Virus record (IMG/VR): IMGVR_UViG_3300009481_000002
Coordinates: 1 to 37,652 of that record
DNA length: 37,652 nt
Strand: one strand, 5' to 3'
Source: a virus
Shown one piece after another: positions 5,206-37,652 of the stretch; the first letter of the stretch is position 1; each line of letters begins with the position of its first letter. Position numbers and translations under genes: made by a program. Below the pieces are notes generated by a model. The model was not told the origin of the DNA, did no database searches, and saw nothing but the letters and a program-made list of their open reading frames with translations.

Positions 5206-6974
5206 TACAACGCTCCTAACAACTCACGCAAACCGCCAGCCCCACCTTGAGCAGGAGGAGGTGGACTAGCCATTGCCTCTGCTCCTGCTCCGGCTTGGGC
5301 TATACCAGCTTGTGCTTCAGGGGATGTAGGCGAAACCATTGTGGCTTGCCTTTCTTGCGCTTCACGCTGTACTTTTTCGACAGCTTCAGCAAGTTCAGCT
5401 TTATCTGATTTAACAAGATCAATAATTCGAGCAAGATCAGAAGGCGGTATCGCCCCTCCTGCTGCTTGTTGCTGCAAACTAGCAAGCAAACTTCCTTCTA
5501 ATTGTTCCGCAGTAACAGAATCAAGTTCAGCTTCAACATCCTCAACAAGAGGATCTATTTTCATAAACGATTCTTTCGACATTGTACCCATAGCCAAACG
5601 TTGACCGCCAGCGATAACAAGGTTGTTAATATCAGCGCCAGCCTGACTGTACGAAACAACGTTGTCGTCGGTTGTAAAATGTTTGTTGGGGACATAATCT
5701 ACCTTGCCTTTTACTTTATTCATAGAAACATAAAACGATTTAGATTTATTGCCAGCATACGATTTAGCCATAGCAATAGCTACTTTATTTTCTGCTTCTA
5801 AAGAACGAGCAAGTATTTTTTGAGATTCTTGCACAGCAAAATCAACAACCGCAGAAAGCACAGCGTCGCCACGGCGACCAGTACGAATATTGCTAGTAGA
5901 TTCTCCACCAAATTCGGCAGGCACACCAGCAGTTAAACGCTGCGCCCTTTCTAAACGATCAATTGCAGGGTTAGTCATAAACCCTACATTTAATTGCATA
6001 TCTTTTAAATCACCGCCACGAATAACACCAACTTCTCCAGTTAAACCATTCGCAGGGTTAACAATATTTGGTTGCTCACCAGCACGGCCAACAAGCCACG
6101 TATCAGGAAAAATACCTTTCTGGACGGCTATCACTTCCAACGCCATAAGTTTTGCCTGTTGTTGATACATCCCAAGAATGCCATCAAACTGGCCGTTAGG
6201 TTGATCTAAAGAAATACGTTCTGCCATAATGACAGGACATACGCCTGTAGGGTTATGTGTTCGTTCTAACTCAGCAACAACAGGCCCAGTATCATTATTA
6301 CGTGAATACATGCCAACGCTATTAGCTGGATGCCGGACCGCTACAAGCACATACTCTTCATGGTCCACATACTCAATAAGTTCAATTGGTTTATCATTAT
6401 CTAACGGAGCGTTAGAAACGCCAGCAAACCGCAAAGCAGCTTCAGGATAAGATTTTCTAACCCAACCATACGAACGTTCATACCCAAACACGCAATCAGA
6501 AGGAGTCATATTATCAGCGCCACGTAAATTAGACGGATACGCTGTCAACGGGTCACGAACATGCCACGTCGGACATCCTTTTTCTTGATTAAAACGTATT
6601 TGAACAATAGTGTTAGAATATCCAATTAAATGACGTGCCCTTTTAGCTAGTTGCATGTCAATTCTTGAGTTCTGCCACCAACCAAACAACGCTTTACGAC
6701 GAATCGCAGAATATTTCTGAGCTTGTTTAGATGTTTCATCTTCAGGAGGGCAAATAATATCAGGAGTAACCGACGCTATACGCATAGCAGTTTGATCTAA
6801 ACCCTGCGCCAACAAATTAGCTACAGCAGAAGATTCTGTCGTATCTATTTCAGGAAGCGGAACAATAACATCGCCATTGTAATGATCACGTATATGCCGC
6901 ATTTTTTCTTTTACACCAGCATTATTAGATGAACGGGTGTAGTACAGGTCTACAATTTCTTCTGCTGTTTTCAA
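5205..6974 (-). CDS. Putative portal protein (589 aa)
   Basis: Size and position immediately downstream of TerL. The C-terminal tail is A/G/P-rich and low in complexity. The start is TTG at 6974 with no clear SD; the alternative ATG at 6902 is possible. Confidence 0.55.
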   Translation of the reverse strand: MKTAEEIVDLYYTRSSNNAGVKEKMRHIRDHYNGDVIVPLPEIDTTESSAVANLLAQGLDQTAMRIASVTPDIICPPEDETSKQAQKYSAIRRKALFGWWQNSRIDMQLAKRARHLIGYSNTIVQIRFNQEKGCPTWHVRDPLTAYPSNLRGADNMTPSDCVFGYERSYGWVRKSYPEAALRFAGVSNAPLDNDKPIELIEYVDHEEYVLVAVRHPANSVGMYSRNNDTGPVVAELERTHNPTGVCPVIMAERISLDQPNGQFDGILGMYQQQAKLMALEVIAVQKGIFPDTWLVGRAGEQPNIVNPANGLTGEVGVIRGGDLKDMQLNVGFMTNPAIDRLERAQRLTAGVPAEFGGESTSNIRTGRRGDAVLSAVVDFAVQESQKILARSLEAENKVAIAMAKSYAGNKSKSFYVSMNKVKGKVDYVPNKHFTTDDNVVSYSQAGADINNLVIAGGQRLAMGTMSKESFMKIDPLVEDVEAELDSVTAEQLEGSLLASLQQQAAGGAIPPSDLARIIDLVKSDKAELAEAVEKVQREAQERQATMVSPTSPEAQAGIAQAGAGAEAMASPPPPAQGGAGGLRELLGAL

Positions 6975-6978
6975 TGTT

Positions 6979-8892
6979 TTAGCTTTCTGCTGTTACCCAC
7001 GTAGGTCGCCATTGTTTAAATGGCTTAGTTGCAGGTACGTATAGTTTCTCCAGATTATGTTCTACAAACCATTGTGCCATTACACAGTCATCAGTTCTAG
7101 ACCCTGTGCCTTCTGGATTCCATTTTGTTACTTCATTAACTAAACTTAACGAATTAGGTCTAGCATTAGTTCCTTGTTTCCCTGCAAGCCGAATACGACC
7201 CAAACGATACAACGGAGCCAACATTTGCACACCATACTTAGGGTCACCCTTATTACGAGAATGCGTGTAATGAGGTATAAGCTCTACACCACGCAACGCA
7301 GACCACCGCCGAAAATGATCGTACTGCAAAATAAATTTCTGAGCAGCGTTCGCTTCAACTATCCAATGCGTAATCGGATAACCTATCTCGTTACTTATCT
7401 GCCACCACTCTTCAGCTATACCAGTAAATTTTTGCGTATCATGGTTCCAATCTAAAAAAGAAGGAGCGTCCATTTTTTTTCTATGCGATTCTAACAAATA
7501 TCTATACTCAGATTCAGGACAATACGCCCAACATTGCAACGCCCAAAAATTAGACGGAGAAGGGTCAGCCGAAGCTACAACCATTACCTCACCAGCTAAA
7601 TACTTTGGCACTTCCCATAAATCACGGTCATTATCCCAACACCCAATATACTCAACTCCGTTATTGCCAGTACCGCCAGAAATCCAAAGAGGATCAACTA
7701 ACACCGATGCTGGGTCAGTGTCTTCCTGTTGATACAAAATTTCGTAACGGTCAGGCGTTTGCGCTTTAACATGTCGTATACGTCGCCAAGGCAACCGTCG
7801 AGGATACAACAAACAACCCTCAGGGTAAGCAACGTCACTAGGCTTATGTAACTGCTCGCACCTTTCATCATAATGAGCTTTAAATTTAAGATGAGTGTAT
7901 TTACGTTCGCCTTCAAGATCTACTTTACCGTCATTAACATCTTCAATTTCTACATCGTCATCGACAGGCGCAACTTTATCCAACGCATAACGGTAAATAT
8001 CGTCAGAAGCCATACGCTGCCCCTGCAAAATAAGCAACCCAGCAGGCTCCAAACGAGTTTCAGCTACCTCATCCCACCACCGATACATGTCAGCACGTGA
8101 CTCGCTATTACGCATCTTGCGAGGATCCCATACGTCATCCCAAATAATAAGATCAAAACGGCCACCAAGAAAACCAGAGTCCATACCAAACGCAGACCAC
8201 GACGGCTCCTTTTGAGACAACGGCACGTCGCCCTGCTGCACAACAGTAAACGCCTCCGCACGCCATATCTCTTTAGCGTCAGGTTTAAACTGGCCAAAAT
8301 CCTGCTGCATAGTGCATTCAGCATCAACAGCCAAACCCAATTTTAAATCGTTCAACTCAGCACGGGCAACATGCTCACGTTCAAACTCCGCCCTCAAACG
8401 CCGTGTATACCATTCAGCGAGACGTTGAGTCGAGGAACCGAGCATCCCTCTAATCGCCCTGTTACGGACTGTTGCCCATGCTGGAAGCACTTTCGCAAAA
8501 AACGTTGACTTACCACTGCCCGGCGGTGCATTGATAACACAATACTCCTCCAAAGGCGTTTCAAAAAGTTCAAATATTTTTTCAGTAGCTTCTATCTGCC
8601 AAGGCTGCAACACAATACCAAAATAACGCAAAGCAAATTTTTCAATATTGTCCCAACATTCCTGCACTTCCTCAGGTAACTCCGCATACGTAGGAATAGT
8701 CGAAACACCCACATGCTCTGTTTGTTCCTTAGCGATAACATAATTGCGTGTAGATATACGCCCAGATTCATTATCTCTAGCTGAATGGTAATTAACGCCA
8801 GCTTGTTTCGCTGCTTGATATATACTCATGCTACGACGTAGCAACAAGTACTCAGCCCATTTTTCTACTGGGGTAGCTTTACCAGAACCCAT
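6979..8892 (-). CDS. terL: Terminase large subunit with an N-terminal HTH-like extension (637 aa)
   Basis: Walker A is VINAPPGSGKST and Walker B is FDLIIWDD. The C-terminal RNase-H-like nuclease region contains VVASADPS, IVEANAAQKF and DDCVMAQW. The N-terminal ~60 aa (EKWAEYLLLRRSMSIYQAAKQAGVNYHSARDN) looks like a helix-turn-helix. Confidence 0.85.
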   Translation of the reverse strand: MGSGKATPVEKWAEYLLLRRSMSIYQAAKQAGVNYHSARDNESGRISTRNYVIAKEQTEHVGVSTIPTYAELPEEVQECWDNIEKFALRYFGIVLQPWQIEATEKIFELFETPLEEYCVINAPPGSGKSTFFAKVLPAWATVRNRAIRGMLGSSTQRLAEWYTRRLRAEFEREHVARAELNDLKLGLAVDAECTMQQDFGQFKPDAKEIWRAEAFTVVQQGDVPLSQKEPSWSAFGMDSGFLGGRFDLIIWDDVWDPRKMRNSESRADMYRWWDEVAETRLEPAGLLILQGQRMASDDIYRYALDKVAPVDDDVEIEDVNDGKVDLEGERKYTHLKFKAHYDERCEQLHKPSDVAYPEGCLLYPRRLPWRRIRHVKAQTPDRYEILYQQEDTDPASVLVDPLWISGGTGNNGVEYIGCWDNDRDLWEVPKYLAGEVMVVASADPSPSNFWALQCWAYCPESEYRYLLESHRKKMDAPSFLDWNHDTQKFTGIAEEWWQISNEIGYPITHWIVEANAAQKFILQYDHFRRWSALRGVELIPHYTHSRNKGDPKYGVQMLAPLYRLGRIRLAGKQGTNARPNSLSLVNEVTKWNPEGTGSRTDDCVMAQWFVEHNLEKLYVPATKPFKQWRPTWVTAES

Positions 8893-9159
8893 CTACCATT
8901 TAACTTTATTAGCCCAATACGCAGCAGACATCTTACCTTTTTTAATGTTCTTCGCATGACGGGCTTTAAACGACCTAGACCTAGCAGTATTACCCTTATC
9001 ACCAGTTTTACCCTGCTGCCCAAATCGAATAGTTTTAATTTGATTACCTTCTTTAGCCACAACAACATGCGACTTTGTTTTATGCTTAGGAGTACGCTTT
9101 GGCTTATTATATCCAGATACGCCAGCTCTAGCTAAACGAGGATCTTTCTTAGAAGGCAT
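8893..9159 (-). CDS. Ultrabasic small protein (88 aa)
   Basis: Track ORF. Hand count gives 25 K/R against 3 D/E. The stop TAG abuts the terL ATG, and the ATG overlaps the upstream stop as TAATG. Confidence 0.7.
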   Translation of the reverse strand: MPSKKDPRLARAGVSGYNKPKRTPKHKTKSHVVVAKEGNQIKTIRFGQQGKTGDKGNTARSRSFKARHAKNIKKGKMSAAYWANKVKW

Positions 9160-9227
9160 TACTTCTTACGCTTCTTCGGCTTACGTTTCTTCTTAGCCTT
9201 CATAGGCTTACCATAACCATACGCCAT
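9159..9227 (-). CDS. Ultrabasic mini-ORF (22 aa, MAYGYGKPMKAKKKRKPKKRKK)
   Basis: Found by hand, below the track size cut-off. The ATG at 9227-9225 overlaps the upstream TAA, and its own TAA overlaps the downstream ATG (TAATG at both ends). 12 of 22 residues are K/R. Confidence 0.4.
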   Translation of the reverse strand: MAYGYGKPMKAKKKRKPKKRKK

Positions 9228-9418
9228 TAAAACCGTCCCCGTGCTTTCTTCATACGGCGATGGTTAGCTCTTCGCCTAGCACGACCATAACTAGCTTCTT
9301 GCGCTTTAATAGTATTACGGTACGCAGCGTCAACCGACCCAGCGCCTAAAGTAACTTTACGCTTTTTCTTATTTATATTTCTTTTAATTTTATTTATACC
9401 AATTTCATTTATACCCAT
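9227..9418 (-). CDS. Ultrabasic small protein (63 aa from ATG 9418; the track gives a TTG start at 9436)
   Basis: Track ORF. ATG 9418 is preceded by GAGGG. Hand count gives 20 K/R against 3 D/E. Confidence 0.55.
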   Translation of the reverse strand: MGINEIGINKIKRNINKKKRKVTLGAGSVDAAYRNTIKAQEASYGRARRRANHRRMKKARGRF

Positions 9419-9426
9419 AACGCCCT

Positions 9427-9525
9427 CTACTGACAACTCTCACAATACTCAGGATTCTCTAACCCACACTCTAGCACCTCATCGTCCTCCACGTCCCACA
9501 CCTCATCAAAATCTTCAAAAAACAC
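9427..9525 (-). CDS. Acidic mini-ORF (32 aa, M-FFEDFDEVWDVEDDEVLECGLENPEYCESCQ), first ORF of the leftward arm
   Basis: Found by hand. A GTG start at 9525 lies 5 nt after AAGGAG. 13 of 32 residues are D/E, there is no K/R, and it carries a C-x7-C-x2-C pattern. Confidence 0.35.
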   Translation of the reverse strand: MFFEDFDEVWDVEDDEVLECGLENPEYCESCQ

Positions 9526-9683
9526 AAAAACTCCTTGTCATACTGTTGCAAAAAAGAAACAACCGAGATACCCTACAACATAACTTAATCCCAAACGGGT
9601 ACTGTGGACCCTTGACCCACCACAGCAACGCTTGTAAGAAGCGCCCGACTAACCCTCGGTGCGTCACCCGTCAGAAGGGTAAC

Positions 9684-9725
9684 CGCCCCCTATGACAACG
9701 CAACAGGAATGAGCGCATAGGGGCG
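9684..9725. promoter_or_regulatory. Strong hairpin in the GC-rich part of the control region
   Basis: CCCCTATG (9687-9694) pairs with CATAGGGG (9716-9723). Outer CG/CG pairs lie across a 1-nt bulge. The loop is 21 nt. Confidence 0.4.
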
Positions 9726-9770
9726 TAGCGCACAGGACAAAGCGACTACAAGGCCAAAGCAGCCCTAATG

Positions 9771-9787
9771 CTTGGGAGGTTCCCAAG
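9771..9787. promoter_or_regulatory. Perfect 7-bp stem with a 3-nt loop, immediately before the C/A tract
   Basis: The sequence is CTTGGGA-GGT-TCCCAAG. Confidence 0.4.
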
Positions 9788-9791
9788 GGAT

Positions 9792-9899
9792 CCCACGCCC
9801 AAAACACAACAACCCAACACCAAAAAACAAACACCCCAAACACACAACAAAAAAACCCCCACAACACACAAACAACTGAACCAAAACAACCAACAAACC
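9792..9899 (+). repeat. C/A-only low-complexity tract (G/T-only on the other strand)
   Basis: Of 108 nt, only three are not C or A (g9797, t9877, g9878). 9798-9876 is 79 nt of pure C/A. Confidence 0.95.
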
Positions 9900-9939
9900 G
9901 CTAATAACTCAAGGATATGGGGGGTACCAAGGCAATCTG

Positions 9940-9953
9940 TTAGGTATGCCTAA
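9940..9953. promoter_or_regulatory. Palindromic 14-mer TTAGGTATGCCTAA, copy 1
   Basis: TTAGG/CCTAA arms with a TATG centre. It recurs 69 bp downstream. Confidence 0.4.
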
Positions 9954-10008
9954 CACTTATTGTAAGGCCAGGCTGATAGGGGGTGTCAATCAAACAGAAC
10001 ACCCAGTA

Positions 10009-10022
10009 TTAGGTATGCTTAA
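10009..10022. promoter_or_regulatory. Palindromic 14-mer TTAGGTATGCTTAA, copy 2
   Basis: 13 of 14 bases match copy 1. Each copy lies 14-15 nt (copy 1) or 26 nt (copy 2) downstream of a GGGGGT run (9919-9925 and 9978-9983). Confidence 0.4.
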
Positions 10023-10170
10023 TGTGTGGTTTGAAAGCGAACGTTTGTTCGATGTTGCCCTGTAGTGGCCCTAGGATGCGTCCTAAGGACTGTTATACGT
10101 TCGCCGGTACTGTTACCCATGTTGGAGCTATAAACGCCTTAGCTGTATAACGTTCGTTATGTTACAGAAA

Positions 10171-10179
10171 TGTTACAAT
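10171..10179 (+). promoter_or_regulatory. Candidate extended -10 promoter (TGT-TACAAT) for the rightward early arm
   Basis: TGnTACAAT matches TGnTAnnnT. It sits in an AT-rich patch with TGTTAY repeats. No convincing -35 element is present. Confidence 0.3.
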
Positions 10180-10495
10180 GTTGTTGGGTGACTGGCATTG
10201 ATCTTCAATCTGTGTATGTAATTGAAGTAGCTTCTCAGTTTAGAAACCGACTCTGAGATAAGCCCTGAGGAAGGGGGAGCGAATAGGAAGGACAGGGCGA
10301 CCATAGACCCCGACACAAGAGTTCTTCCAAAAGGTTGAAAGTCCCCAAATTGGTCACACCTTTTAAACCGGTATTGAACGGGAATTAGCGGAAAGACCCT
10401 AGGCTACTAGGACAACTACCGAGGCGAGATGACTTAACCGACACCTATCGGGATACTACTGATGGAGGCCGTATGGCCCTAAGGGTAAATTAGAA

Positions 10496-10565
10496 TCTTT
10501 CTTTCCTTCTCTACGGATACCGTACTGACGAGGCTCCCAGACTGGAGCTAGAAAGAAAGGAAAGA
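10496..10565 (+). promoter_or_regulatory. Leader structure that sequesters the SD of the first early gene
   Basis: Pyrimidine arm TCTTTCTTTCCTT (10496-10508) pairs with purine arm AAGGAAAGAAAGA read 3'-5' (10553-10565): 11 Watson-Crick pairs, 1 G-U, 1 mismatch. It encloses the hairpins TACGG-ATA-CCGTA (10512-10524) and GCTCC-CAGACT-GGAGC (10533-10548). Confidence 0.4.
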
Positions 10566-10566
10566 C

Positions 10567-10773
10567 ATGGAAGAACTAGAGCGCAAAGCCAGAGCAAGAG
10601 CAAAGGCAAGAGCTAAGAATCAAAGGGCGTTAGCTATCCGATATAGCCAGATAACGCACCGTTCAACGGTTGCACCGGCTCCCAGAGTTCACAACCGGCA
10701 TACCGTGTGGACACTTCAGACAGTCGGCAAGACTGACACGATTCCAAACTGGGCCGGAAAAATCCGGTGGTAG
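10567..10773 (+). CDS. Hypothetical early protein (68 aa, basic, RAKA repeats)
   Basis: Track ORF. The ATG is preceded by AGAAAGAAAGGAAAGAC. Confidence 0.6.
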   Translation: MEELERKARARAKARAKNQRALAIRYSQITHRSTVAPAPRVHNRHTVWTLQTVGKTDTIPNWAGKIRW

Positions 10774-10837
10774 TGCTTAGGGCATCCGCAAGGGTGCCCG
10801 TAGTAGTATCACCTGATACTAGAAAGAAGGAAGAATA
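10774..10837 (+). repeat. Two-hairpin intergenic module U0
   Basis: Hairpin 1 is GGGCATCC-GCAA-GGGTGCCC (10780-10799). Hairpin 2 is AGTATC-ACCT-GATACT (10805-10820). AGAAAGAAGG and the ATG follow. Confidence 0.8.
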
Positions 10838-11077
10838 ATGAGTGAAAAATTCACTATTGAGATAGAGCCGGATTATTTATCTACTGGAGCGCATGTTGCC
10901 AGCCGGATATTAGAGGCACGGCCCGACAATATGACCGTCGCTGCTTGGCGTGCGATTGTGGTTACATTCGCTGACCATATCCGCTACCTAGCTTTTAAAG
11001 CTGCGGATGCTCCCGAAGGTGAACTAAGTGATTATCATAAGCTTATGGTTCACTTGGATACGTACCTACCTCGCTAG
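10838..11077 (+). CDS. Hypothetical early protein (79 aa)
   Basis: Track ORF with the extended SD AGAAAGAAGG. Confidence 0.7.
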   Translation: MSEKFTIEIEPDYLSTGAHVASRILEARPDNMTVAAWRAIVVTFADHIRYLAFKAADAPEGELSDYHKLMVHLDTYLPR

Positions 11078-11143
11078 GTTGTGCTTTGAGCATTAGAAAT
11101 AGTGCTCTTAGTAGTGCTTAGCGCACTGGAAAGAAGGAAAATA
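11078..11143 (+). repeat. Two-hairpin intergenic module U1
   Basis: It has the GTTGTGCTTTG box. Hairpin 1 is GAGCAT...GTGCTC (11088-11107). Hairpin 2 is AGTGC-TTAGC-GCACT (11113-11127). GGAAAGAAGG follows. Confidence 0.8.
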
Positions 11144-11326
11144 ATGAAATACAGCGTATGGTATGGCATAGATGGATGTTTACCTGAACAAGAGTATCCA
11201 CTATTTGAATCAAATAACTATCGTGAATGTAAATCATTCATAACTAACGAACGTAAAGAGTTTATCGCAGAGTTTGGTAAACCATCCAAATATAATTTGT
11301 ACGATTGGTACATTCACGAACACTAG
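11144..11326 (+). CDS. Hypothetical early protein (60 aa from ATG 11144)
   Basis: The track ORF 11102..11326 starts at an alternative codon inside module U1. ATG 11144 has the conserved SD spacing. Confidence 0.65.
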   Translation: MKYSVWYGIDGCLPEQEYPLFESNNYRECKSFITNERKEFIAEFGKPSKYNLYDWYIHEH

Positions 11327-11393
11327 GTTGTAGGTTGAGCATTGGAGACAGTGCTTTTCCTAGTGCCTAGTGGCACGGAAAGAAGGAAAAGAT
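11327..11393 (+). repeat. Two-hairpin intergenic module U2
   Basis: It has the GTTGTAGGTTG box. Hairpin 1 is AGCATT...AGTGCT (11338-11355). Hairpin 2 is GTGCC-TAGT-GGCAC (11363-11376). GGAAAGAAGG follows. Confidence 0.8.
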
Positions 11394-11729
11394 ATGCTTA
11401 ATTGGTATAACAAAGAAGTAGACCTCGACCGTTGGCGTAGAGGTGATCGGTATTATCACTGGTGTGACGCATTCAACGACAGCGAAGACCCTTGTGAAGA
11501 ATTTGGGAACATGCACTGGGACTTATGTACCAAGTGCATTAAGCTCCCTGACTTGTATGATCGGTTAGACTTTGAGCATCACAAACAATACAAAAACACT
11601 AAAGGTAGCCATATTGATGGACCTTGTGCTAGACCTGAATACTATTGGAAGTATGATAGCTACACGGGTGACGCTGAACCAAGCGGAGAGTATCTGTGCG
11701 ACGTGTGCAAGATAGTCTTGAATCACTAA
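11394..11729 (+). CDS. Cys/His-rich early protein (111 aa from ATG 11394)
   Basis: Track ORF trimmed to the SD-supported ATG. It contains several C-x2-C-like pairs (CTKC, CDVC). Confidence 0.65.
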   Translation: MLNWYNKEVDLDRWRRGDRYYHWCDAFNDSEDPCEEFGNMHWDLCTKCIKLPDLYDRLDFEHHKQYKNTKGSHIDGPCARPEYYWKYDSYTGDAEPSGEYLCDVCKIVLNH

Positions 11730-11795
11730 GTTGTGCTTTGGACATTCGTGAGAGTGTCCTTAGTAGTGCTTAGTGCACTGGAAAGAAGGAAGATA
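11730..11795 (+). repeat. Two-hairpin intergenic module U3
   Basis: It has the GTTGTGCTTTG box. Hairpin 1 is GGACAT...GTGTCC (11740-11759). Hairpin 2 is AGTGC-TTAGT-GCACT (11765-11779). Confidence 0.8.
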
Positions 11796-12083
11796 ATGTC
11801 AGAAAGAATAACTACACAAGATTTAGAGCGTCAAGTAGAAGTGTTAAACGGTTACTTTGGTATTCGGGATAGCAATGCTGTAGGACGCTTTGAAATTGAG
11901 TATGCCTATGGTGATTGCCGATTAGTACGAATTCTTAATGAAGGCAATGGCGAACGTGATATGTCTAAACGTGGTACTAAGCGTGAGATATACGAAAAAC
12001 TTTACGCCATTAACAAAGTCATTTACGAATTTAAGGATGACTTTGGAATAGCAGTAGACAAAGTAGACCGGCTTAACGCTTAA
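11796..12083 (+). CDS. Hypothetical early protein (95 aa from ATG 11796)
   Basis: Track ORF trimmed to the SD-supported ATG. Confidence 0.65.
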   Translation: MSERITTQDLERQVEVLNGYFGIRDSNAVGRFEIEYAYGDCRLVRILNEGNGERDMSKRGTKREIYEKLYAINKVIYEFKDDFGIAVDKVDRLNA

Positions 12084-12157
12084 CGCTGCTAAGTTGTGGG
12101 TTGAGCATCAGCGATGGTGCTTTTCCCAGTGCTTAGCACTAGAAAGAAGGGAAAGAT
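12084..12157 (+). repeat. Two-hairpin intergenic module U4
   Basis: It has the GTTGTGGGTTG box. Hairpin 1 is AGCATC...GGTGCT (12104-12121). Hairpin 2 is AGTGC-TTA-GCACT (12128-12140). Confidence 0.8.
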
Positions 12158-12439
12158 ATGAATCGAAAAGAAATCGAACAAATAATGATGACATCAGAAG
12201 TCACAGCCCTGCACCAATTATGGGACAAGATGCTACAACTCATTGAAGATGCAGTACCTCAACAGGGTAAGTGGACTTTTACAAGAACCAATTACAATGG
12301 TCACCGCATAACATTTACGTTTGAGAGAGATCAAATCATTGAGCAAATTTTTAGCGATAGCCTTGACCGCTGGTCTGATCTTAAAGTCATTACGGAAGAT
12401 ATGACATCTTTAGAAATTGTAAATTTTATTAACCAATAG
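12158..12439 (+). CDS. Hypothetical early protein (93 aa)
   Basis: Track ORF with the extended SD. Confidence 0.7.
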   Translation: MNRKEIEQIMMTSEVTALHQLWDKMLQLIEDAVPQQGKWTFTRTNYNGHRITFTFERDQIIEQIFSDSLDRWSDLKVITEDMTSLEIVNFINQ

Positions 12440-12509
12440 GTTGTGCTTTGGACATTGGAAACAGTGTCTTTAGTAGTGCCTAATGGGGCGCTAGAAAGAA
12501 GGAAAAGAT
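12440..12509 (+). repeat. Two-hairpin intergenic module U5
   Basis: It has the GTTGTGCTTTG box. Hairpin 1 is GACATT...AGTGTC (12451-12468). Hairpin 2 is AGTGCC-TAATGG-GGCGCT with one G-U pair (12475-12492). Confidence 0.8.
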
Positions 12510-18831: not shown

Positions 18832-18998
18832 TCAATCCAAACACCTATCATGTGGCAAATGAACGACCCTACGGTAAGCCAGATACCGTACTCCCTAGTC
18901 TCACCAGACAATGTAATAAGCACAATGCCTGTTGAACCAGCAGTAAGAGACAAAGCAAAAATTTCCTTTGTTACTCTTTTAACTCTACGCTTTATCAT
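18816..18998 (-). CDS. Small two-TM membrane protein (60 aa from ATG 18998; the track gives GTG at 19031)
   Basis: Track ORF. It has a basic N-terminus followed by two hydrophobic segments. Confidence 0.45.
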   Translation of the reverse strand: MIKRRVKRVTKEIFALSLTAGSTGIVLITLSGETREYGIWLTVGSFICHMIGVWIDWKDE

Positions 18999-20709
18999 CT
19001 TTCGCTTTTCTCCTTGGCGCTTCGGGACCACTGGGAGCAGCAGCTTGCGGACTGCTAGGTCGAGGTGTAGGTGTAGGTGTAGGTCTTGGTGTCGGTGGAG
19101 GTGTAGGTCGAGGTGTAGGTCTAGCTACCGCTGCTCCAGTCGCTATTGTAGCAACCGTCGTGACAGCAATCACTACCCGACGATCCTCAACAGTAATCGT
19201 TGAATCCTCAGCGACGTAAGTTTCAAGACCCCCAGCGTACACGTTAACTTCTTCTTCTAACTCAGCTTTAACCTCGTCAGAAGCGTCATTAAATATTTCT
19301 GGAGCTGCCTCAAAAAGCTCCTCTACCTGTTCCTCAGATGCTTCCTCAAAAAACTCTTCGTTATCTTCTAAGATCTCTTCAAGAATTTCTTCAACGTTCT
19401 CTTCATCTTGTAATATTTCAAAAAGAATTTCGTCGTCCAACTCATCTATATCCAACTCCTCGAAATCAACTTCTTCAATGTCCTCAAATTCTTCAAGGAC
19501 AAATTCAATATCTTCTTCCTCTGATTCTAGAACATCTGCCTCATCCAAGTTGGCATCTTCTTCTTCGTCTCGCTCCACCAATTCTTCAAATTGTGGTTCA
19601 GGTTCATTAACCAGATCTTCAAATTCTTCTTCTTCAAATTCCAATTCATCTTCTTCAAACTCCTCGTCTATAAATTCTTCTTCTATTTCAGGTAACTCAT
19701 CAAAATCAAAATCGTAATCTTCCCAATCTACTTCCTCCAGATCAACCCAGATGCTATCATCATCGTATGGGTATCCTTCTTCTTCCTCTGGTTCTATTAT
19801 CAATACTGGTGGTTGCCACTCTTCTGGCTCTTGGGGTTCATATTCCAATTCTGGCAATTCTTCTGGTGGTGTGGGTAGTTCCTCTGGCTCTTCTGGGGTT
19901 GGCGGTAGTGTGGGTTGTGGTTCGGGCGAACTTTCAGGAGAAGGTTCGGGGACATCATCTTCGACAGTGGGAACAGGAGTGGGGTCGATTTGAGGACTAG
20001 GATCAGGTTCAGGCGTTGGCGTAGGCGTTGGCTCGACTTCTTCCTCAGACGTAGGCGTTGGCTCAGGTTCAAGAGTTGGTGTCGGCTCAGGTTCAGGCGT
20101 TGGCGTAGGCGTAGGAGTCGGCTCAACAGTAGGAGTTGGTTCAGGGGTTGGCGTAGGTTCTGGAGTAGGTGTCGGGTCAACAGTTGGAGTAGGCTCTGGT
20201 TCTGAACCATCTAAACTCCACGAACCGCCGGACAATTCCATTGTGTACGTTCCTATATGTTCGTCATCGTAAGCGTCAGCTCTAAGCTGATACGTACCTA
20301 TGTCTAGGGTGGGTGTTAATTGGCTATCCCAGCACATGTTACTCCCATCGTTATGAGGCGCAGAGTCGTCATCATCCGCAACCAGAGTCAATGTTCCTTC
20401 ACTATTAACGCTATATAACCAGATGTGAGGATCGGCAGCGTAGGCATGAGGCGCATTGTCCCAATCATCGCAGGTCATAGACGTAAAAGTAATAGCATTT
20501 ATCGGAGTTTGATCTTCAGTTATTTCCAACGTGAACGTAGGCCCAGCCTCAAATTCATTAACCCACACGGTGCAACGCAACAAATTATCTTCTTCATCCT
20601 CGACACAGGTCGTAACGTTCTGTTCTTGCGCTCCGACAGGCGAAATAAACGCCATGATAAGCATAGAAGCAAACAGTATTCGTGACAGCACAAAGAAAAA
20701 ACGGGCCAT
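18985..20709 (-). CDS. Secreted, C-terminally anchored protein (574 aa). In order it has a signal peptide, a Cys-containing globular domain, a PT-rich linker, a ~210-aa polyacidic region, a TM helix and a Pro/Arg-rich tail.
   Basis: The N-terminus is MARFFFVLSRILFASMLIMAFISPVGA-QEQ. Residues 169-300 are P/T/E repeats. Residues 301-510 hold about 102 D/E and only 3 K/R by hand count. RRVVIAVTTVATIATGAAVA is hydrophobic, and the tail runs RPTPRPTPPPTPRP...RRKAKDDKA. Confidence 0.7.
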   Translation of the reverse strand: MARFFFVLSRILFASMLIMAFISPVGAQEQNVTTCVEDEEDNLLRCTVWVNEFEAGPTFTLEITEDQTPINAITFTSMTCDDWDNAPHAYAADPHIWLYSVNSEGTLTLVADDDDSAPHNDGSNMCWDSQLTPTLDIGTYQLRADAYDDEHIGTYTMELSGGSWSLDGSEPEPTPTVDPTPTPEPTPTPEPTPTVEPTPTPTPTPEPEPTPTLEPEPTPTSEEEVEPTPTPTPEPDPSPQIDPTPVPTVEDDVPEPSPESSPEPQPTLPPTPEEPEELPTPPEELPELEYEPQEPEEWQPPVLIIEPEEEEGYPYDDDSIWVDLEEVDWEDYDFDFDELPEIEEEFIDEEFEEDELEFEEEEFEDLVNEPEPQFEELVERDEEEDANLDEADVLESEEEDIEFVLEEFEDIEEVDFEELDIDELDDEILFEILQDEENVEEILEEILEDNEEFFEEASEEQVEELFEAAPEIFNDASDEVKAELEEEVNVYAGGLETYVAEDSTITVEDRRVVIAVTTVATIATGAAVARPTPRPTPPPTPRPTPTPTPRPSSPQAAAPSGPEAPRRKAKDDKA

Positions 20710-27292: not shown

Positions 27293-27538
27293 CTATTCTT
27301 CTCCGTAAAGAATCTCCTCAGGCTGAGTCTTACGACCAACCAACGAGAACGAACTATCTCCAACTTTAGTAGCAGCCCAACCTTTAAGAACAGATAACAC
27401 GGCAGCAAAACCAGAAGCTACAACAAGTTTCCAGTTGCTTACGCCCATCTCAAGGAAGGAGTTACCACTGATCGTGGCTACTGCTGCTTGTACAAACGTC
27501 GCTCCGCAGCGTTCAAGTAAATCTAGATATTCTTTCAT
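27293..27538 (-). CDS. Holin, r1t-like (81 aa from ATG 27538)
   Basis: ERCGATFVQAAVATI...WKLVVASGFAAVLSVLKGWA resembles actinophage r1t-type holins. It shows an ATGA overlap with the endolysin stop. Confidence 0.65.
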   Translation of the reverse strand: MKEYLDLLERCGATFVQAAVATISGNSFLEMGVSNWKLVVASGFAAVLSVLKGWAATKVGDSSFSLVGRKTQPEEILYGEE

Positions 27539-28260
27539 TTTCTCAATAAAGCCTTCCAAGTATTAGGACCAACAATCCCATCAACATATAATAGACGACG
27601 CTTCTGAAACTCCACAACAGCCTTATGCGTAAGCCTTCCAAAATCTCCATCAACTTTGTACCGATACAACCCCTTATTACCAAGAAGCCCCTGAACTACC
27701 TTCACAGGCTGCCCCTTAGAACCCTTCTTCAATGGGTGTCGTCGAATCAAATCTTCTATCTCAGCTAACGCAGCGCCAATACCCTTAAGGTCTTGCTTAA
27801 CTTTTTTCTTAGCTTTCGTTCCCTTCAAAGCCGGAGCATCAAACCACTGAATCTTGCCCTTAACTACCTTGCAAGGTTGGTGATGCCACCACTCTCCTCT
27901 AACGTATGCAACCATACCATAAGATTTAGCTATAGCGTTCACTTGAGAAGTACTGATACCACGCCCAGTAATTCTAAAGTCAACGGCATAACCCCAACTA
28001 TCAAACGCTGGTTGCTGCATGTGATACGAACCCTGAAAACCTGACGCTGTTTTACGGTCAGGGTTAGCAGCTAAATTAAAACCTGCCCTGCCACTTTTGT
28101 ACCCGTCGTACAAGTATTTTTGTTGTGCGTAAGTACGCACAGCAGATACCACCTTGACACGGCCAGAAATTCTGTCGTCAGCAAAGAACGCTTCTAACCT
28201 GCGTTTAAACTCAGGGTGTAAAAGTTTAGTATTTATGCTACTGTTCGTCGTCGGTATCAT
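27535..28260 (-). CDS. Endolysin with a peptidase M15 (VanY-like) catalytic domain and a PG_binding_1 domain (241 aa)
   Basis: SAVRTYAQQ, SYHMQ...WGYAVDF and GEWWHH fit the zinc-peptidase M15 motifs. The C-terminal VQGLLGNKG...DGDFGRLTHKAVVEFQ...VDGIVGPNTWKAL fits a peptidoglycan-binding repeat. Confidence 0.75.
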   Translation of the reverse strand: MIPTTNSSINTKLLHPEFKRRLEAFFADDRISGRVKVVSAVRTYAQQKYLYDGYKSGRAGFNLAANPDRKTASGFQGSYHMQQPAFDSWGYAVDFRITGRGISTSQVNAIAKSYGMVAYVRGEWWHHQPCKVVKGKIQWFDAPALKGTKAKKKVKQDLKGIGAALAEIEDLIRRHPLKKGSKGQPVKVVQGLLGNKGLYRYKVDGDFGRLTHKAVVEFQKRRLLYVDGIVGPNTWKALLRK

Positions 28261-35974: not shown

Positions 35975-37652
35975 CTAGTCTGCCCAACTGTTCTTGGGAA
36001 TAAGATCATTCTCTAAAAACCTTGAATAGAACAAAGCAAAATCTGGCCTAGTAGCAAACTCAGATCTAACTTGATCCCACTCATACATTAATAATCTATT
36101 GTTATCAGCTTCCAAAGAACTACTAGGCAACCTTCTCAAATCATTTTCAAAATCGTTCCGAATATCTAAATACTCTACAAGGCTACCAATCCAAGGCTTA
36201 TACGCTAACGACGGTTCTTCAACCAAAGCCCTAGCGCCTTCCATTACCTCAGCAATATAATTAGAAGAACTAAATTCTTCAATCGCTTCACCAAACAACG
36301 GATATTTTTCACTAAGTTCTGCTTTTTTGAGATCATAATATAGCTTTAAACCAGAATGAACAGCAGCAGAAGGCGAATTACTTAACCCATCATTAGCATA
36401 CAACAACTGATTATAAGACGGGCTTCCTTCTACACCATCTATTGGGCTATCTTTCCAAGCGTTTAATTCAGTATATCCACGTGACACTTCTGTCTGTTTA
36501 ATAAATTCTTCAGGCGTATAAATTTCACGCCATCCTTCATTCATAAAAATTTGTTGAACAGCCGGTGAAAACGCCCCATCTTCAATAGCGCTGACACGCA
36601 AAGAATTAGTTACAACAGAAGTCATTACAGGATATTTTTCTATAAAATCTTTATGTTTTTGAGATAATTTAAACGACTCTATTGTCGGAGCAACACCTTT
36701 AGCATTTCTAGTTGCGTTACCGCTTAGAAAGAAAAACTCTTCGCCGTAAAGATTAAGGAATTGGTTAACAGCCCATTCAGGTTCTAAACCTAAAGCTCTA
36801 CCATGTTCTTCTAATTGATTTAATTTTATAATATACGGTTCATACGGAGAACCTTCAGCAGAAGCTACAGGTATTACAGTAGTTGCAAGAAACTTTAAGA
36901 ACCCGACACTTTGTGTCATTTCTTCAGCTTTAGCTATAACGTTACTTTGTACTTCAGGGTCAGTGTAGTCGTAAGGAGTTCCTGCTTCTCTAGCTTTAAC
37001 GTCAAGGTAAGTCACCATATCAATCATGGTCAATCCGTAGTTTTGTTTATTGCCGTAACGGAAAGGGTTATCTGGATCTAACGCTGTGTAGTATAAATGA
37101 TCGGCCCATGACGGAGTAAATTCTTGAACAAAACGTTCAACAAAGTTTCCATCTGGGTGGCCGAATGGGAACATCCATCCAGCAACTTTTTCTATTTCAG
37201 GTTTTTTAAAATCAAACATAAACGTTCGTAAAGGCAACGTAATAAACGGGCCAGCACTAGGAGTTGTTTTAGTTAACATCGTAAACAACCCATCTTTATC
37301 TAACTTAATTCCAACCTCGTCAACAAGCTCACCGACACTACCAATAGGAGAACTAGGCAACACCTGATTAGCAGCGTCACTAATACTATTAGTAAATTTA
37401 GGATTAACTAACAACGATGCAAGAGCGCTATCTTTAGGTCTAAACACAACATTTAAATTTCCGTATTGATCTTCTTCTTGTGTTAACCCTAGGATCGGCA
37501 ATTCAACATCATCTTTAGTAAACAACCGAACACCTTTATAAACAAACGCAGGATTTTCTATAGCTAGCCCAGCCCACCTGCCAATAACTTCTTGCCACGC
37601 ATTAAAGAACGGCGACATAAAACCAACCATTTCAGCAAATTCGCTGTGTTCA
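35975..37652 (-). CDS. Giant virion-associated protein, C-terminal part. It is the same ORF as 1..4835, and 37530-37652 duplicates 1-123.
   Basis: The track ORF 35975..37630 stays open upstream to the window end (EHSEFAEMVGFMSPFF...). The full ORF is 6,390 nt, or 2,129 aa, in the circular genome. Confidence 0.8.
   Translation of the reverse strand, partial: EHSEFAEMVGFMSPFFNAWQEVIGRWAGLAIENPAFVYKGVRLFTKDDVELPILGLTQEEDQYGNLNVVFRPKDSALASLLVNPKFTNSISDAANQVLPSSPIGSVGELVDEVGIKLDKDGLFTMLTKTTPSAGPFITLPLRTFMFDFKKPEIEKVAGWMFPFGHPDGNFVERFVQEFTPSWADHLYYTALDPDNPFRYGNKQNYGLTMIDMVTYLDVKAREAGTPYDYTDPEVQSNVIAKAEEMTQSVGFLKFLATTVIPVASAEGSPYEPYIIKLNQLEEHGRALGLEPEWAVNQFLNLYGEEFFFLSGNATRNAKGVAPTIESFKLSQKHKDFIEKYPVMTSVVTNSLRVSAIEDGAFSPAVQQIFMNEGWREIYTPEEFIKQTEVSRGYTELNAWKDSPIDGVEGSPSYNQLLYANDGLSNSPSAAVHSGLKLYYDLKKAELSEKYPLFGEAIEEFSSSNYIAEVMEGARALVEEPSLAYKPWIGSLVEYLDIRNDFENDLRRLPSSSLEADNNRLLMYEWDQVRSEFATRPDFALFYSRFLENDLIPKNSWAD
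37530..37652. repeat. Terminal duplication copy 2. It is identical to 1-123.
   Basis: Same 123-nt string as the window start. This implies a unit genome of 37,529 bp. Confidence 0.95.

Follow-up and report, generated by a model that had tools for sequence, protein, structure and literature searches.

Between positions 8893 and 9525 of the uncultivated marine phage genome IMGVR_UViG_3300009481_000002 (37,652 nt, all of which were analysed and are referred to below as the window), four very small open reading frames (ORFs) lie on the minus strand directly upstream of terL, the gene for the large terminase (TerL). The first encodes an acidic peptide, A32, and the other three encode extremely basic proteins, B63, C22 and D88. 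Comparison with related phages indicates that the slot between A32 and terL is a hypervariable cassette of interchangeable small ORFs. We propose, with a little less than even confidence, that the basic proteins are late, translationally coupled polycations which bind nucleic acids, that their most likely effect is to neutralise or condense the DNA of the phage while it is being packaged or afterwards, and that they are not a small terminase (TerS).

The marine phage genome is circular, with a length of 37.5 kb, and this region forms the 5' end of its late operon, which carries the packaging and structural genes. An earlier note on this DNA, made from the letters alone, had placed four ORFs of extreme charge here, and both the ORFs and their charge were borne out. 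A32 (9427..9525, minus strand) starts with GTG and contains 13 aspartate or glutamate residues, 3 Cys and no lysine or arginine (K/R) among its 32 aa. B63 (9227..9418, minus) starts with ATG and has 20 K/R in 63 aa; an alternative TTG at 9436 (9227..9436) would extend it to 69 aa. C22 (9159..9227, minus) is the 22-aa peptide MAYGYGKPMKAKKKRKPKKRKK with 12 K/R, and D88 (8893..9159, minus) has 25 K/R in 88 aa and belongs to the family phrog_7595. They are followed by terL (6979..8892, minus; 637 aa, phrog_38 at E 1e-45) and then by the portal gene. The six frames of the window contain 463 ORFs of 20 aa or more. When these were ranked, C22 had the highest K+R fraction (0.55), B63 was 6th (0.32) and D88 13th (0.28), and A32 had the most negative net charge. 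The extreme basic composition of protamine-like and internal-protein DNA condensers is thus present in C22, B63 and D88.

The earlier note had also described the ORFs as chained by TAATG overlaps up to terL, which holds for most of the string. The B63/C22 and C22/D88 junctions are TAATG stop/start overlaps, and the terL ATG immediately follows the TAG stop of D88. At the A32/B63 junction, however, the TAG stop of A32 is separated from the B63 ATG by an 8-nt gap, with GAGGG as a possible Shine-Dalgarno (SD) sequence. As read from the sequence, the only strong SD in the chain is the AAGGAG of A32 (9531..9536, minus), 5 nt ahead of its GTG; no SD stands in front of the D88 and terL starts in this genome. 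A promoter scan of 8800-10900 detected no sigma-70-like promoter.

To compare the locus with its relatives, IMG/VR was searched with TerL, which recovered 79 related loci with TerL identities from 100% down to 47%. Selection was measured by codon-level comparison with these relatives as the ratio of nonsynonymous to synonymous substitution rates (dN/dS). The values were 0.1-0.3 for A32, 0.01-0.28 for C22 and 0.04-0.11 for D88. In distant relatives the synonymous sites of A32 are saturated and 70-80% of its residues are retained, and one relative (L020) has a C22 of 100% protein identity at 86% nucleotide identity. These patterns indicate with high confidence that A32, C22 and D88 are genuine genes. 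For B63 the dN/dS was 0.2-0.54, estimated from three near-identical relatives with an in-frame 5-codon indel. Its only carriers are L004, L005 and L079, the last a duplicate of the window, and among 5.8 billion proteins only six clusters were found, all at least 86% identical. With moderate confidence B63 appears to be a genuine gene as well, in the form of a lineage-restricted ORFan. Its homology to a positional analogue in L012 was considered and rejected, as an 11-residue GxGSVD stretch is all that the two share. The four-ORF string highlighted by the earlier note thus yielded a divided result upon comparison: A32, C22 and D88 are under purifying selection, but the string as such is not kept and B63 is confined to a narrow lineage.

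The slot itself was surveyed in the 53 relatives for which A32 as well as the start of terL could be seen, with about 10 kb examined for each. There were 19 architectures; the number of small genes ranged from none to six, and they belong to about six families. The lysine-rich ones are C (22-42 aa), B (49-63 aa), F2 (phrog_16028; about 50-65 aa with the motif GLYANIHAKRKRI...GAPT), D (phrog_7595) and F4 (phrog_6437; about 87-96 aa); the F2 and F4 proteins of the relatives match their profiles at E 1e-25 to 1e-26. F6 is an acidic, Cys-containing family of 64-81 aa with an FCSPxYC...HD...D(F/C)CWP(V/I)VRI pattern, which is found directly before terL in some relatives (L010 3787-3999, L011 636-830, L012 3032-3277 and others) and is missing from the window. 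D occupies the slot in 24 of the 53 relatives, F4 in 21, C and F2 in 17 each and B in 5; in 14 of the 53, A32 is followed by terL with none of the defined families between. The genes mostly follow one another as A, C, (B), F2, D, F4, (F6), terL, of which the window carries B, C and D between A32 and terL. In all 17 relatives that have one, the C homologue (22-42 aa) is directly downstream of A32. Even L009 and L010, with TerL 89-92% identical, have no D in the slot.

The contents of the slot vary, but its boundary with terL is tight. Seventy loci were compared in this respect, namely the window, its duplicate L079 and 68 relatives. In 69 of them an ORF of 20 aa or more has its stop between -8 and +16 nt from the beginning of terL; in L009 the distance is 24 nt. 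The abutting ORF may belong to D, F4, F6, a long form of A or none of the defined families. Since the stop of the last small ORF is only a few bases away from where terL starts, the synthesis of TerL is probably coupled to whichever small ORF precedes it. The constants of the family are the A peptide, an N-terminal extension of TerL resembling a helix-turn-helix (HTH) domain, a structured element upstream of A32 and the tight abutment of terL.

The cassette genes are not confined to this family of phages. D88 matches phrog_7595 at E 2e-34, with residues 3-88 aligned to profile positions 3-96 of 96, and is an added member of a catalogued, uncharacterised family. The three profiles matched by D88, F2 and F4 (phrog_7595, phrog_16028 and phrog_6437) are without functional annotation. 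A32, B63 and C22 are uncatalogued, and no catalogued family was matched by any of them. A word-indexed search returned at least 8000 clusters of the D88 family at 90% identity, all hypothetical and none with a Pfam family, and an exhaustive search returned 1088 clusters at 50% identity (E<=1e-3). By tblastn, D homologues of 31-82% identity were present in 52 cultured-phage records. They include cobaviruses (ICBM2, CRP-4, CRP-5, SIO1 and P12053L), HMO-2011-type phages (CRP-1 and others), cyanosiphoviruses (S-CBS2, KBS-S-2A and MED4-117), a pelagimyovirus and, at 37% identity, a thaumarchaeal (Nitrosopumilaceae) spindle-shaped virus. The proteins of ICBM2, CRP-5 and CRP-4 are 77-82% identical to D88. 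When the 3.1 kb at 6900-10000 of the window were used as a query, the D gene alone matched cultured phages at the DNA level.

In the cultured phages D lies away from terL. In CRP-5 it is found at the end of the lysis/structural arm (79% identity), two genes from F2 (87%), with another basic mini-protein one gene beyond F2. In CRP-1 the D homologue gp66 coexists with an annotated TerS, gp53. In S-CBS2 it follows an F4-like gene among endonuclease genes, with HNH and endonuclease VII genes on its flanks. F2 was found in 84 cultured-phage records, among them those of T7-like cyanopodoviruses and pelagiphages, where it is located mid-genome and often near ribonucleotide reductase (RNR) genes. In 80 further IMG/VR loci with D (L085-L164), the TerL family of the window was present in only 3. 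An adjacent small basic ORF on the same strand was found upstream of D in 30 of these 80 loci and downstream in 39. The neighbours of D in such islands include F2, F4-like and DUF6496 (E 9e-13) proteins and proteins of the KAFWD...GRPYPNLVDN, MPMVNGKKY and YHYMPDGKLM types. These observations indicate that D and F2 move between unrelated marine phages, mostly in islands of small basic genes or fused to larger proteins. The fusions are common, and many proteins of 236-2276 aa carry the D domain as their C-terminal module; searches of ten of the long proteins against Pfam and PHROGs gave no annotation for the partner regions.

Profile and structural searches yielded few clues to function. The cassette families had no meaningful match in Pfam and NCBIfam, except for DUF6496 and weak HNH_3 matches among their neighbours, and D88 had none among PDB sequences. 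The D motif is weakly similar (E 1e-3 to 5e-2) to segments of virion proteins, namely phrog_220 ("minor head protein and DNA pilot"), PF23980 and phrog_1011. An AlphaFold2 (AF2) model of D88, built on a 63-sequence alignment of low diversity, showed a beta-hairpin and one helix at low confidence (mean predicted local distance difference test score, pLDDT, 48.8). A literature search on small basic phage proteins, DUF6496 or these proteins found nothing relevant. Some members do resemble known DNA-binding tails. The C proteins of L010 and L011 carry KRGRPSK and those of L007-L009 and L078 carry VGRP, both reminiscent of AT-hooks, and F2 proteins end in histone H1-like tails of the AKKRKPAKKK type. 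The C22 of the window, in contrast, contains no GRP and hence not the R-G-R-P core of an AT-hook, and the sequence of D88 is specific, conserved and non-repetitive, which also differs from tails of this kind.

We infer that the basic mini-proteins may bind nucleic acids. This is suggested by their composition, by the RGRP cores in the C proteins of relatives and the H1-like tails of F2, as well as by late co-transcription in three unrelated phage groups and the weak similarity of the D motif to virion proteins. The structured leader element and A32 open the late operon, and the chained small ORFs, whose stops and starts overlap or abut, probably lead ribosomes to the terL start, which has no SD in this clade. 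In the mechanism we favour, the basic proteins would be accessory polycations made late, together with the packaging motor. They would neutralise or condense the phage DNA during or after its packaging and may be co-packaged with it. Recognition of the DNA to be packaged would be supplied by the HTH-like N-terminus of TerL, to which A32 or the leader region may contribute.

Viral polycations that are packaged with or condense DNA include the T4 internal proteins IPI-III, the adenovirus proteins VII and mu, and baculovirus P6.9. These may be the closest functional analogues, as they too are small, extremely basic and produced late, along with packaging and structural genes. The proteins of the window differ from them in being rich in lysine rather than arginine, and in having no homology to them and no evident capsid-targeting signal or protease site. 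In its arrangement the slot also resembles the coupled small-ORF clusters of the 'moron' kind, as it holds variable accessory genes with stop/start overlaps between a regulatory region and the terminase gene. What sets it apart is the restricted, ultrabasic repertoire, which recurs as islands in many unrelated marine phages.

Several observations weigh against the account given here. The AF2 models are of low confidence, DNA binding is predicted from sequence, and the HTH assignment of TerL relies on sub-threshold matches only. The literature searched, including cobavirus proteomics, contained no virion-proteome evidence for any homologue. The absence of D, F2 or C from a relative refers to its slot, within the approximately 10 kb examined, and not to its whole genome. 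In T7-like cyanophages F2 is located mid-genome near RNR genes and away from packaging genes, which makes it unlikely that the set as a whole is tied strictly to packaging. Finally, D and F2 are 60-87% identical across distant phages, with invariant His, Trp and Gly positions. This exceeds what generic charge neutralisation would need, and a specific conserved partner, of host or viral origin, is therefore a serious rival.

Besides a TerS, the earlier note had suggested protamine-like DNA-condensing proteins and host-nucleoid effectors, of which we lean towards the former. The form of this rival that involves the host would direct the basic proteins at a conserved host component, for example the nucleoid, the ribosome or RNA, or RNA polymerase. 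They would then be neither virion nor packaging components, and would spread horizontally because the target is universal. The identity of D and F2 among alphaproteobacterial, cyanobacterial and SAR11 phages, and the 37% identity of D in a thaumarchaeal virus, are consistent with this possibility. The invariant His and Trp positions suggest a specific interaction, and the genomic context of the genes ranges from mid-genome to late regions. On the other hand, in this family as well as in cobaviruses and HMO-2011-type phages, co-transcription links the genes to late structural or lysis genes and not to those of early host takeover. There is also no similarity in Pfam or NCBIfam to ribosomal proteins, nucleoid-associated proteins or RNA polymerase-binding families. 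We consider a host target unlikely, albeit an explanation to be kept in view.

The first gene of the operon behaves differently from the basic genes. A32 is the ORF with which the leftward late operon opens, and it counts among the core genes of the phage family. In 53 relatives a homologue, between 32 and about 100 aa long, precedes terL, and the C-terminal motif E-C-x-L-E-N-P-x-x-C-E-S-C-Q-stop is common to these proteins. In a more distant clade the A protein is about 93 aa long, has an additional Cys/His-rich N-terminus and ends 10 bases before terL; D and F4 are upstream of A or missing in this clade. A32 had no match in Pfam, PHROGs, NCBIfam or PDB. Comparisons of D88, the profile of the TerL N-terminus and a long A-family protein with PDB sequences gave nothing, or a chance match to an RNase A linker. 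The earlier note had suggested that the acidic peptide might be a chaperone or antagonist of the basic proteins. This is not supported as its main role, because A32 is conserved, and often abuts terL, where the slot has no basic genes.

The second constant is a structured noncoding element of about 200 nt (9597..9800, minus) in the foremost part of the late operon, some 70 nt ahead of A32. It was found in about 50 relatives, always on the terL strand, and retains about 90% nucleotide identity in relatives where the 5' end of terL is only about 70% identical. Of its 43 predicted pairs, 26 show compensatory changes. Paired cells amounted to 94.9%, compared with 85.4% in shuffles and 40-50% in slid controls, and none of 500 shuffles reached the observed values. 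The element is probably an RNA, and three G-U pairs that are largely invariant make the operon strand the more likely one for it. No Rfam match at E<=1 (window 9300-10900) and, with ARAGORN, no tRNA or tmRNA was found in the leader region. It may be a late-operon leader, such as an antitermination or a translational-control RNA, or be related to packaging. Just upstream of it, at 9800-9900, is a tract of strongly skewed composition, in which C and A prevail on the plus strand and G and T on the operon strand, with degenerate direct repeats in 3 copies of about 33 nt. Relatives retain a G/T-rich tract at the equivalent position without the exact sequence.

The third constant is the N-terminal extension of TerL (8617..8892, minus), which comprises about 92 aa before the ATPase domain, with Walker A around residue 125. 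TerL itself matched termin_lrg_T7 at E 3.7e-8, below the cut-off. The extension is kept in all relatives, including the 47%-identity outliers without the cassette, and shows an HTH sequence pattern across the family. Several divergent TerLs gave sub-threshold Pfam matches to HTH_3, HTH_31 and HTH_35 at residues about 16-47 (E 0.003-0.08, the best at 0.003-0.008). An AF2 model from the single sequence was all-helical at low confidence (pLDDT 47). A profile of the N-terminus had no match among PDB sequences, and a literature search on TerL-HTH fusions found nothing relevant. We regard this region as a candidate built-in DNA-recognition domain, a more plausible and economical one than the basic proteins. 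Taken further, this would mean that packaging proceeds without TerS by means of HTH-TerL together with A32 and/or the leader, and that D, F2, F4 and C, which rank among the most abundant unknown gene families of marine viromes, are protein counter-ions loaded into capsids with the DNA. As a complete account we find this rather improbable.

Another explanation is that the small ORFs chiefly serve as translational-coupling relays to a terL start which lacks a ribosome-binding site (RBS), and that their products are secondary. Two observations are in line with it: the terL start is 0-16 nt from an upstream stop in nearly all relatives regardless of the ORF family, and D88 and terL in the window both start without an SD. 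But purifying selection on C22 and D88 is strong at the amino-acid level, and the D and F2 families are conserved in contexts without a downstream terL. The products are therefore functional in themselves, and a relay as the chief role is improbable.

We give an equally small chance to the possibility that these are selfish mobile mini-genes, transferred horizontally, perhaps by homing endonucleases, without benefit to the phage. The patchy, cassette-like distribution would fit, as would the restriction of DNA-level matches with cultured phages to D in the 6900-10000 query, the HNH and endonuclease VII genes on either side of D in S-CBS2, and an F4-like variant with a weak HNH_3 match (E 0.006). 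Very strong purifying selection (dN/dS 0.04-0.1) and conservation across deep phage lineages argue otherwise, and no endonuclease gene was seen to adjoin the cassette in this phage family. F4 itself was considered as a bona fide HNH nuclease and rejected, as the match falls short of the threshold, the motif is compressed and Cys ligands are lacking.

The earlier note had noticed that no canonical TerS-sized gene is present and had suggested that the mini-proteins might take the place of TerS. The first part was upheld at the sensitivity of profile hidden Markov models. A PHROG scan of 26 window ORFs (the four mini-ORFs, TerL, portal, a 122-aa ORF and 19 others) gave no match to TerS families, with some short early ORFs and several large structural ORFs, including a giant one, outside the scan. 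The second part, in which the four mini-proteins together would form a fragmented or novel small terminase that hands DNA to TerL, did not fare as well. The mini-ORFs share with TerS (Pfam Terminase_2, lambda Nu1) the position immediately upstream of terL, to which they are translationally coupled, and as basic proteins they could plausibly bind DNA. Yet they have no TerS match in Pfam, PHROGs or NCBIfam at E<=1, no HTH profile match and no oligomerisation core, and at 32, 63, 22 and 88 aa they are of the wrong size compared with about 100-200 aa for TerS. Synteny is not conserved either. With 19 architectures the basic genes are not steadily kept beside terL; they are gained and lost freely in close relatives, to the point that 14 of 53 have none between A32 and terL, and B63 is limited to three near-identical genomes. 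D and F2 are found far from terL in unrelated phages, and in CRP-1 D coexists with an annotated TerS. T7-like phages are expected to encode their own TerS, and F2 is found mid-genome in T7-like cyanophages. Moreover, every TerL of the family already has the HTH-like N-terminal domain. Comparative genomics thus largely refutes a TerS role, which we consider very improbable, and the basic proteins are most likely not a small terminase. Least probable of all is that they are cationic lysis or membrane-active peptides (disruptin-like) or otherwise associated with lysis. D and F2 of CRP-5 do lie among small membrane- or lipoprotein-like genes beside a lytic transglycosylase, but the holin and endolysin of the window are about 18 kb away (27293-28260), the proteins have no amphipathic or transmembrane character, and the D domain is fused to large soluble-looking proteins.

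Other features of the window were recorded. Its ends, 1-123 and 37530-37652, are identical over 123 bp, which indicates a genome of 37,529 bp that is circular or was assembled as a circle. The portal gene and the 122-aa ORF are followed downstream by a giant ORF of about 2,130 aa on the minus strand, which extends from 4844 over the junction as far as 35975. On the plus strand, five intergenic repeats of 76 nt (11071-11146, 11320-11395, 11723-11798, 12086-12161 and 12433-12508), 63-84% identical to the reference copy, stand in front of consecutive early genes. Each apparently has two short segments able to form hairpins and, after these, the ribosome-binding sequence GAAAGAAGGAAA, and they are probably repeated early promoter/terminator and RBS units. 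At 19046-19141 there are 12-nt tandem repeats in 6 overlapping, GGTGTAGGTCGA-like copies, which lie within or near the start of a rightward 117-aa ORF (18850..19203) and overlap the 3' end of a leftward 574-aa ORF.

Small basic ORFs found at the position of TerS should therefore not be annotated as TerS. The interest of the locus lies in the cassette behaviour of its genes, in the abundance of their families and in their translational chaining to the packaging ATPase. If the basic proteins were counter-ions in a TerS-less packaging system, tailed phages would possess a system comparable to that of protamines. The families of D88 and its cassette partners are very abundant and uncharacterised, and they extend across the phages of roseobacters, SAR11, SAR116 and cyanobacteria.

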